Assembly: GCF_003334255.1 (NCBI RefSeq)
Contig: NZ_QOWU01000246.1
DNA from: Escherichia coli
GTDB lineage: Bacteria; Pseudomonadota; Gammaproteobacteria; Enterobacterales; Enterobacteriaceae
Reading direction: 5' to 3' (one strand)
Length of the DNA stretch: 407 nt
In this document: in pieces, positions 1 through 407 of the stretch
Numbering within the stretch: position 1 is the first letter of the stretch
Layout of the letters: each line of letters opens with the position of its first letter
The notes under the pieces: generated by a model
Seen by the model: only the letters and a program-made list of their open reading frames with translations
What the model was told of the DNA's origin: nothing
Database searches by the model: none
Made by a program: the position numbers and the translations under genes

Positions 1-72
1 TTGTAAATCCCCGTGAAGGCAGATGCGTGCCAGTGGCGGTGACGCCAGACAGAATGCGTTCGTCGTTGCCAT
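1..72 (-). CDS. I: Phage tail assembly protein I homolog (lambda gpI family), N-terminal 24 codons only; continues beyond window position 1
   Basis: An ATG at + 72..70 (minus strand) opens a frame reading MATTNAFCLASPPLARICLHGDLQ up to the window edge. This resembles the N-terminus of lambda gpI as I recall it (roughly MAATHTLPLASPGMARICLYGDLQ...). It is in a different frame from K and overlaps K's 3' end, as in phage lambda. A purine-rich Shine-Dalgarno-like tract lies upstream. Confidence 0.75.
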   Translation of the reverse strand, partial: MATTNAFCLASPPLARICLHGDLQ

Positions 73-407
73 TTTTCGGAATACCTCTCCCGTTTACTCA
101 GTTGTTCAGGCAGATGGTGAAGCAGCTCACCGTTGCCGCAGTAAATGGCGGCATGGTTGGCCACCGATGCGCCAAAGCAGCACAGCAGAATATCGCCCGC
201 CTGTGCAGAGGACAGGGGCACCCGGTAAAAGCCCGTGGCCTCCATATTGTCCAGGTACAGGTTCTGGCCGTTGCGCCACCACTCATCCTCGCGGTGAAAA
301 TCCGGCATCTCAGTCCCCGCCAGATGGTAGGCATCCCGGAACAGCGTGTAACAGTCCGTCACCCCGTGCTCAAAGCGCCGTCCTGTCAGATGTGGCACAC
401 AGCGGAA
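1..407 (-). CDS. K: Phage tail(-tip) assembly protein K homolog (lambda gpK family), C-terminal NlpC/P60 (C40 peptidase-like) domain; internal fragment, truncated at both window edges
   Basis: Reverse-complement frame beginning at + position 407 is open for all 135 codons: FRCVPHLTGRRFEHGVTDCYTLFRDAYHLAGTEMPDFHREDEWWRNGQNLYLDNMEATGFYRVPLSSAQAGDILLCCFGASVANHAAIYCGNGELLHHLPEQLSKRERYSEKWQRRTHSVWRHRHWHASAFTGIY. It contains an NlpC/P60-like arrangement: Cys in TDCYTLF (+351..353), His in ANHAAIYCG (+153..155), and a second His 12 residues later in ELLHHLP (+117..119). The sequence closely resembles the C-terminal part of lambda gpK as I recall it. Neither start nor stop lies in the window, which is why the ORF track did not report it. 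Confidence 0.85.
84..91 (-). promoter_or_regulatory. Shine-Dalgarno-like ribosome-binding site (GGGAGAGG on the minus strand) for the I start codon
   Basis: The minus strand reads ...aaacGGGAGAGGtattccgaaaaATGgca..., placing the purine tract 11 nt upstream of the I ATG. The spacing is on the long side for a canonical SD, and the tract lies inside the K coding sequence, so it is constrained by K codons as well. Confidence 0.45.

Follow-up and report, generated by a model that had tools for sequence, protein, structure and literature searches.

Positions 1-91 on the minus strand of the 407-nt stretch of Escherichia coli DNA analysed here (the window) very probably represent the junction of genes K and I in the tail operon of a lambda-like prophage, where both reading frames are translated and the two genes overlap by 103 nt. 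This K/I overlap is already known, having stood in the lambda record since its deposition, and biologically there is nothing new in it; the sole practical finding is a truncated start of gpI in the RefSeq annotation of a very common E. coli prophage gene.

Read on the minus strand from 407, the window is free of stops for 135 codons, to position 3, and the translation of this frame (FRCVPHLTGRRFEHGVTDCYTLF...SEKWQRRTHSVWRHRHWHASAFTGIY, ending in ...WHASAFTGIY) corresponds to a gpK-like protein with an NlpC/P60 domain. The frame beginning at 405 is closed by a TAA at 96..94, after which come the residues TGEVFRK and then the ATG at 72..70, from which 24 codons run to position 1 with the gpI-like N-terminal translation MATTNAFCLASPPLARICLHGDLQ. 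The I frame is -1 relative to K, third positions of K codons thus being first positions of I codons. The two-frame overlap inside the window (positions 1..72, minus strand) amounts to 72 nt, and the last ~11 residues of the K NlpC/P60 domain fall within the overlap. Plus-strand ORFs of the window reach 20-27 codons only. The features of the window are the following.

1..407, minus strand: 3' part of a gpK-type gene, K residues 103-237 of 247 aa, with the stop outside the window
42..383, minus strand: NlpC/P60 (C40 peptidase) domain of K, residues 111-224 (Pfam PF00877)
94..96, minus strand: TAA, the stop in the I frame that forms the upstream limit of the I ORF (frame translation)
83..89, minus strand: putative Shine-Dalgarno sequence GAGAGGT of gene I, within the K codons GAG-AGG-T(AT)
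70..72, minus strand: putative ATG start of gene I (tail tip assembly protein I), from conservation and alignment with the lambda I start at 14773
1..72, minus strand: dual-coding stretch, I codons 1-24 over K codons 214-237, the in-window part of the 103-nt overlap
16..33, minus strand: I residues 14-19 (ARICLH), predicted beta1 of a ubiquitin/MoaD-like beta-grasp domain (Pfam, AlphaFold2 and Foldseek)

The attribution of both frames to a lambdoid tail operon, proposed in an earlier note from the letters of the window, was confirmed by homology. Of 5426 complete E. coli genomes, 3947 have lambdoid prophages that match the window, at up to 98.0% identity, and the genes concerned bear the annotation 'C40 family peptidase' (the E. 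coli prophage K, at 98% DNA identity); matches also occur in 227 phage records, mainly Stx-converting phages (best identity 96.3%), where the match sits under 'phage tail assembly protein (x2)'. Positions 1-69 of the window recur at an identity of at least 99% in 914 E. coli records, and the closest locus, an E. coli prophage (L001), is identical to the window over positions 1-125. Gene order is H-M-L-K-I-J, H being the tape measure gene, in L001, in a Stx-phage locus (L002) and in lambda. K of L001 matched Pfam NLPC_P60 (PF00877) over residues 111-224 (model 1-105 of 105, E = 3.3e-13) and Prok-JAB (PF14464) over residues 3-105 (E = 9.7e-15), the latter lying outside the window, while TIGR02219 gave a weak match to the K fragment within it. 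The second frame likewise has gpI homology by Pfam, tblastn and phmmer. Since the window holds only I residues 1-24, these searches were made with I of L001, which equals the window over the shared part of I; against lambda gpI in the PDB (8iyk_I) it gave E = 3.5e-96 over residues 1-224 (phmmer), and its Gly-rich linker and C-terminal plug domain (homologous to lambda gpI 135-223) lie outside the window. NCBIfam holds no model matching gpI.

In the lambda record J02459, K occupies 14276-14875 and I 14773-15444, so that 103 nt are shared, and in both L001 and L002 the K stop at 2936-2938 and the aligned ATG at 2836 give the same length. The overlap measured 103 nt in every intact lambda-group locus examined (through L099), and 97 nt in a Providencia phage whose proteins are only 59% (K) and 46% (I) identical. 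Among 134 distinct lambda-group sequences, covering both E. coli clades, the K stop is found at the same site as TGA in 126 and as TAA in seven, the remaining one carrying an indel. Window-specific exact patterns of 41 nt and 27 nt for the window's own left flank matched nothing in viral_contigs or genome_contigs. By extension through the relatives identical over window positions 1-125, the K stop of the window would lie 31 nt past position 1, as it does in L001, L002, lambda and other lambda-group loci, and the full overlap would be 103 nt. The earlier note had expected a true overlap longer than 72 nt and had put that of lambda at roughly 100 nt, and this agrees with lambda and with the closest relatives.

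The ATG at 72..70 is invariant in all 134 distinct sequences, coincides in the alignment with position 14773, where I is annotated to begin in lambda, and with an ATG of the Providencia phage, and is the only ATG, GTG or TTG between the TAA of the I frame and beta1; in L001, the I ORF is open from 2815 with an ATG at 2836 and a GTG at 2935 as the only start candidates. The sequence GAGAGGT stands 10 nt before the ATG and includes the rare Arg codon AGG of K (86..84). It is invariant in the 134 sequences save for one A-to-G change, its two K wobble positions included, and its predicted pairing with the 16S 3' end amounts to -8.6 kcal/mol here, -9.4 in lambda and -6.9 in the Providencia phage. 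Lambda has a second in-frame ATG at codon 14, which was rejected as a start: this codon is CTG in the clade of the window, and the Shine-Dalgarno pairing in front of it in lambda is -2.5 kcal/mol. The length of the I ORF was also set aside as evidence, being uninformative, since the same frame further upstream, with six stops in 104 codons, contains a 51-codon stop-free run by chance; the significance of the I frame accordingly comes from homology and conservation and not from ORF length. These comparisons support a start of I translation at the ATG inside K, and the earlier reading of an I start at 72 with its ribosome-binding site inside a K frame still open at position 1, overlapping out of frame by at least 72 nt, agrees with the coordinates as well as with homology, conservation and the Shine-Dalgarno sequence. 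A literature search for the gpI N-terminus found neither direct protein nor ribosome data, a single mass-spectrometry entry being one unnamed peptide, and a search for lambda ribosome-profiling results covering K/I gave nothing usable. The tryptic peptide of the predicted gpI N-terminus is (M)ATTNAFCLASPPLAR, and its lambda counterpart is AATHTLPLASPGMAR.

At the protein level, Pfam Lambda_tail_I (PF06805, TAPI) matched I of L001 over residues 15-97 (model 3-83 of 83, E = 5.2e-16). With I as a query, tblastn gave matches in 1716 phage records, and the distant ones (30-38% identity), from Klebsiella, T1-like, Pseudomonas, Acinetobacter, Synechococcus and other phages, begin at query residues 13-24. 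These alignments begin upstream of residue 34, where a GTG codon at the K stop serves as the start of I in RefSeq, and consequently the residues before this codon are homologous protein. Where I genes stand free of K, as in mEp235/HK022-type, Mannheimia, Synechococcus S-CBS4 and Vibrio pVa-8 phages, their start precedes the part aligning with ARICLHGDL (beta1) by 0-4 codons; in the mEp235/HK022-type and Mannheimia phages, a moron and a terminator stand between K and I. An AlphaFold2 model of I, built on an input alignment of 16 sequences, places strands at residues 14-19 and 29-33 and a helix behind them at 37-47, with a pLDDT of about 77-84, and Foldseek matched it to full-length MoaD, CysO, SAMP1, Urm1 and ubiquitin (target-normalised TM 0.69-0.74). 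The part of I within the overlap (34 residues) is thus predicted to comprise a 13-residue leader and the first two beta-strands of a Ub/MoaD-like domain. As to the other frame, an FTGIYNDL-like motif of the K C-terminal tail (...WQRRTHSVWRHRHWHASAFTGIYNDL...) is kept in the Mannheimia phage, where there is no overlap with I, and by this conservation the K tail is a genuine protein segment; the other frames at the Mannheimia site, which has the moron between K and I, show no clear remnant of an overlap. Among close relatives, the I frame is alike in part because the DNA of the K gene is conserved.

The Ub-like domain of the gpI N-terminus has been described before, together with a proposal that the JAB domain of gpK cleaves it off (Iyer et al. 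2006). Hence, the overlap encodes the C-terminus of a putative protease, gpK, and the N-terminus of its putative substrate, gpI, which is neat and not new. The long overlap could itself be functional, tying the gpK peptidase in cis to the Ub domain proposed as its substrate in gpI and fixing the ratio of the two, with ribosomes on K modulating the initiation of I and, optionally, with the GTGA at the K stop yielding a gpI isoform devoid of the Ub domain; such a role is considered unlikely. The support for it goes no further than the conserved geometry.

The earlier note had also expected strong sequence constraint on the shared stretch, and a comparison of substitution inside and outside the overlap found both the codon-position and the N:S patterns shifted towards the I frame. 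These figures cover 100 overlap sites, are dominated by two clades and carry no phylogenetic correction. In the 315 nt belonging to K only, 30%, 15% and 68% of sites are variable at K positions 1, 2 and 3 respectively, and in the overlap the values are 21%, 45% and 41%. Variability thus rises from 15% to 45% at K position 2, which is I position 3 (Fisher p = 6e-4), and falls from 68% to 41% at K position 3, which is I position 1 (Fisher p = 8e-3). By I codon position, these overlap values are 41%, 21% and 45%, the usual ordering for a coding frame with I position 2 the least variable. A tally of single-base variants of the overlap gave 45 distinct ones: 16 leave only the K protein unchanged, 19 leave only the I protein unchanged, 10 alter K and I alike, and not one leaves both unaltered. 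For I, the N:S ratio amounts to 1.37 inside the overlap versus 1.33 downstream of it, and for K it goes from 0.58 outside to 1.8 inside, variant density per nt being 0.46 in the overlap, 0.51 in the K-only and 0.99 in the I-only part. Judged by these patterns and by the independent homologues of both segments, the overlap is truly dual-coding with constraint in both frames, this constraint being redistributed rather than simply raised: the wobble freedom of K is mostly lost, and its tail takes more amino-acid changes. The expectation of strong constraint holds in part, in that K wobble variability drops and I varies half as much in the overlap as downstream; it fails in that K position 2 becomes more variable and the overlap as a whole shows no higher conservation than K elsewhere. 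In practice, the last 103 nt of K are to be treated as dual-coding when synonymous rates, codon usage or the design of 'silent' mutations are concerned. A structured RNA or a regulatory site behind the conservation was rejected, as searches of the K/I junction for Rfam families, promoters and terminators gave no match and its folding is like that of shuffled sequences.

With regard to expression, the most likely mode for I, deduced from sequence, is a Shine-Dalgarno-dependent internal initiation. Ribosomes would initiate at the ATG 72..70 by means of GAGAGGU (89..83), which is written into codons of K, and this would be a direct internal initiation on the late mRNA instead of termination-reinitiation, ribosomes translating K presumably just passing through the I start site. 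From the ATG of I it is another 100 nt downstream to the K stop, and not a few nt as in a coupled pair; because of this distance, termination-reinitiation cannot serve I. Moreover, the 101 nt around the I start fold at -20.5 kcal/mol versus a mean of -24.6 for shuffles (z = +1.18), and an equal or more stable fold was obtained for 180 of 200 shuffles. The I start region folding no better than shuffles, nothing points to a masked site that translation of K would have to open. In classical genetics, K and I formed two distinct complementation groups, which argues against a strict dependence of I on the translation of K. A probable translational coupling of I to K, which the earlier note had put forward, is therefore not sustained given the distance from the K stop, the own Shine-Dalgarno sequence of I and the lack of unusual structure.

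The annotations of I disagree with one another. The start is set at the ATG in lambda and in Stx-phage records such as L002, while in L001 the RefSeq/PGAP gene for I extends over 2935-3516 and begins with the GTG, so that the two genes share 4 nt at the K stop. Phage records are inconsistent, some using the GTG (PhiR49_1) or still later codons, and in an evenly spaced sample of 60 E. coli RefSeq records, all 60 have only K annotated over I codons 2-24. The GTG and the K stop form a GTGA in 126 of the 134 distinct sequences, the GTG is a GTA in the seven with a TAA stop of K, and it is missing in the Providencia phage. Its predicted pairing with the 16S 3' end is -1.5 kcal/mol, or -2.7 for the GTG of lambda. 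A conserved Val codon is sufficient to account for this GTG, its third base G being forced by the TGA of K.

It could be supposed that both starts are used, the ATG giving a full gpI with Ub-like and plug parts and a K-coupled GTG giving an isoform without an intact Ub-like domain. Along with the presence of GTGA in most sequences, the virion is compatible with an N-terminally shorter form: cryo-EM papers describe gpI as a trimeric plug in the tail tip of which only residues 134/135-223 are resolved, as for the F-pyocin homologue, where only the C-terminal part is seen as well. The missing N-terminus would however be equally explained by disorder or by cleavage by gpK (Iyer et al. 2006), virion structure papers reporting gpK itself to be absent from the virion, and the GTG, which has no Shine-Dalgarno sequence and is lost in seven of the 134 sequences and in the Providencia phage, is accounted for by the two-frame constraint. 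A use of both starts is consequently held to be very unlikely.

A K stop just to the left of the window combined with an I start further downstream corresponds to the PGAP annotation; on this model, translation of I would begin ~28 nt left of the window with the GTG on the K stop, coupled to K termination, the ORF from the ATG would be untranslated, and nothing inside the window would be dual-coding. This type of gene model is the one found in all 60 sampled E. coli records, in L001 and in phage PhiR49_1, its GTGA is the arrangement typical of coupled genes, and in the GC-rich K gene a -1 frame that stays open this long is no rarity. Nevertheless, a start at residue 34 drops beta1 and beta2 of the beta-grasp domain seen by Pfam and AlphaFold, both of which are encoded by all the distant I genes that do not overlap K; the GTG is preceded by no Shine-Dalgarno sequence and is not retained throughout the group; and variability by codon position in the overlap tracks the I frame. 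Homology, structure, Shine-Dalgarno sequence and substitutions thus all reject this arrangement, which is regarded as highly improbable. Prodigal-type gene finders penalise long same-strand overlaps, and this would explain the short PGAP call of I. With translation from the ATG preferred, the RefSeq/PGAP models of gpI appear systematically short by 33 codons, which removes the first two Ub-like strands.

There is next to no chance that K and I are fused by a programmed -1 frameshift in the overlap in the manner of lambda G/GT, for although the I frame is -1 of K as such a shift requires, an A5 run occurs at the I start (76..72, within GAAAAAT 77..71) and K-I or JAB-I fusions are reported in the literature for some prophages, the K frame of the overlap contains no X_XXY_YYZ heptamer in either L001 or lambda, the lambda clade (71 of 134 sequences) has GACAAA in place of the A run, a fusion would have no need of an invariant ATG and Shine-Dalgarno sequence, and the local RNA has no stimulatory structure.

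The K/I junction, read as two translated frames with a start of I inside K, can be compared with other overlapping pairs. Most of the K/I pairs compared overlap by 4-26 nt or not at all. In T1-like and other siphophages (Tls, Sweeny, Over9000, Acinetobacter qsb1 and Pseudomonas UAntarctica), homologous genes for K (peptidase) and I (Ub-like plus plug) are adjacent and usually overlap out of frame by 4-26 nt, the usual range of coupling; there, K is without the C-terminal tail of ~20 residues and I without the 13-residue leader. Coupled pairs of the ATGA or TAATG type such as lambda H/M and M/L are, like K and I, same-strand neighbours in one late operon, but in contrast to them I has its own Shine-Dalgarno sequence and starts 100 nt upstream of the K stop. 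In phiX174 D/E and A/B/K and in lambda Rz/Rz1, whole genes are embedded in others and are often of de novo origin. The K/I overlap resembles these in that one stretch is read in two frames and has no freely synonymous sites; it differs from them in being restricted to the gene ends and in joining two ancient domain proteins whose segments are encoded elsewhere without overlap.

The C-terminal extension of K by ~20 residues is present in lambda and in Providencia, Pasteurella, Mannheimia and Serratia (Swain) phages. In the Pasteurella phage Pmp12, it lies over beta1-beta2 of I for 58 nt and I starts directly at beta1, while in the Providencia and E. coli phages I has the extra leader of 13 residues (MA-T--L-LA-P) and the overlap reaches 97-103 nt. 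This distribution suggests that the long overlap arose in the lambda/Pasteurellaceae lineage, where K would have gained its extension of ~20 residues over beta1-beta2 of I and the start of I would then have moved 13 codons upstream, bringing the overlap to 97-103 nt.

Compared with lambda, the junction is the same in gene order (L-K-I-J), in the -1 frame, in the position of the ATG, in the Shine-Dalgarno sequence GAGAGGT and in the overlap of 103 nt. The DNA is ~80% identical to that of lambda, with 86% identity for K over the aligned part and 67% for I. The difference at I codon 14, ATG in lambda and CTG here, leaves the window without a second in-frame ATG, and the A5 run at the I start is confined to the clade of the window. 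The lambda reference K is annotated with 199 aa instead of 247 owing to a frame break upstream.

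The core of the Shine-Dalgarno sequence of gene I is formed by a codon of K itself, namely AGG, a rare arginine codon located at window positions 84..86 on the minus strand and invariant in the 134 distinct sequences of lambda-group K/I junctions, so that codon choice in K is dictated at this point by the ribosome-binding site of the downstream gene. Next to the I start codon, one further element is found:

Window 72..76, minus strand: A5 run (GAAAAATGG), ending in the I start codon.

This run is confined to the clade of the window, and GACAAATGG is found in the lambda clade.

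With regard to existing annotations, RefSeq/PGAP places the gpI start at a GTG overlapping the K stop (2935-3516 in L001, the closest E. coli prophage locus, that is from 28 nt left of window position 1), giving a protein of 194 aa as compared with 226/227 aa. In all 60 evenly sampled E. coli records (ecoli_genomes matches H106-H165), K is the sole gene annotated over I codons 2-24. The gpI start also varies between phage records, being ATG in LC567818 and GTG in PhiR49_1, and the annotated I start lies approximately 120-160 nt too late in Providencia PSTCR8lys and Salmonella phage 36.

No exact database match to the window was found, the best reaching 98.0%. All 8 differences from the closest locus fall within positions 126-315, with 7 of them within 237-315, while positions 1-125 are identical; this clustering points to a mosaic or recombinant K allele.

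The K gene of the lambda reference is annotated as 199 aa, compared with 247 aa for its homologues. The missing N-terminal part was located as follows:

Right of the window, L003 (lambda J02459) locus 1135-1280, record 14134-14279: lambda K N-terminal region.

These 45 N-terminal residues (MTQTESAILAHARRCAPAESCGF...) begin at an ATG at record position 14134, and their reading frame is not that of the annotated K, which implies that either a 1-nt frameshift or an error in sequencing lies near GAGGCTATTTCCG. Such an event would split the JAB domain.

The K/I arrangement was also compared in other phages. In HK022-like and Mannheimia phages, a moron (a small additional gene that comes with a rho-independent terminator) intervenes between K and I, which are consequently separate and non-overlapping there:

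L011 915-1177: moron between K and I in mEp235.
L007 954-1189: moron between K and I in Mannheimia phage 1152AP2.

In Salmonella phage 36 (L018 541-1818), the regions homologous to K and I share one frame, which is interrupted by a stop at 1231-1233, within the I-like segment. In the related phage Tls, the K/I overlap is out of frame and 8 nt long. An indel or an error in sequencing is the probable cause of the same-frame arrangement of phage 36. Finally, in Stenotrophomonas phage SBP3.1phi2 (L014 1057-1217), the I-frame ORF stays open over 161 nt of K and offers several candidate starts. The annotated one, which gives an 8-nt overlap, falls inside the stretch aligning with gpI from residue 7 onward.
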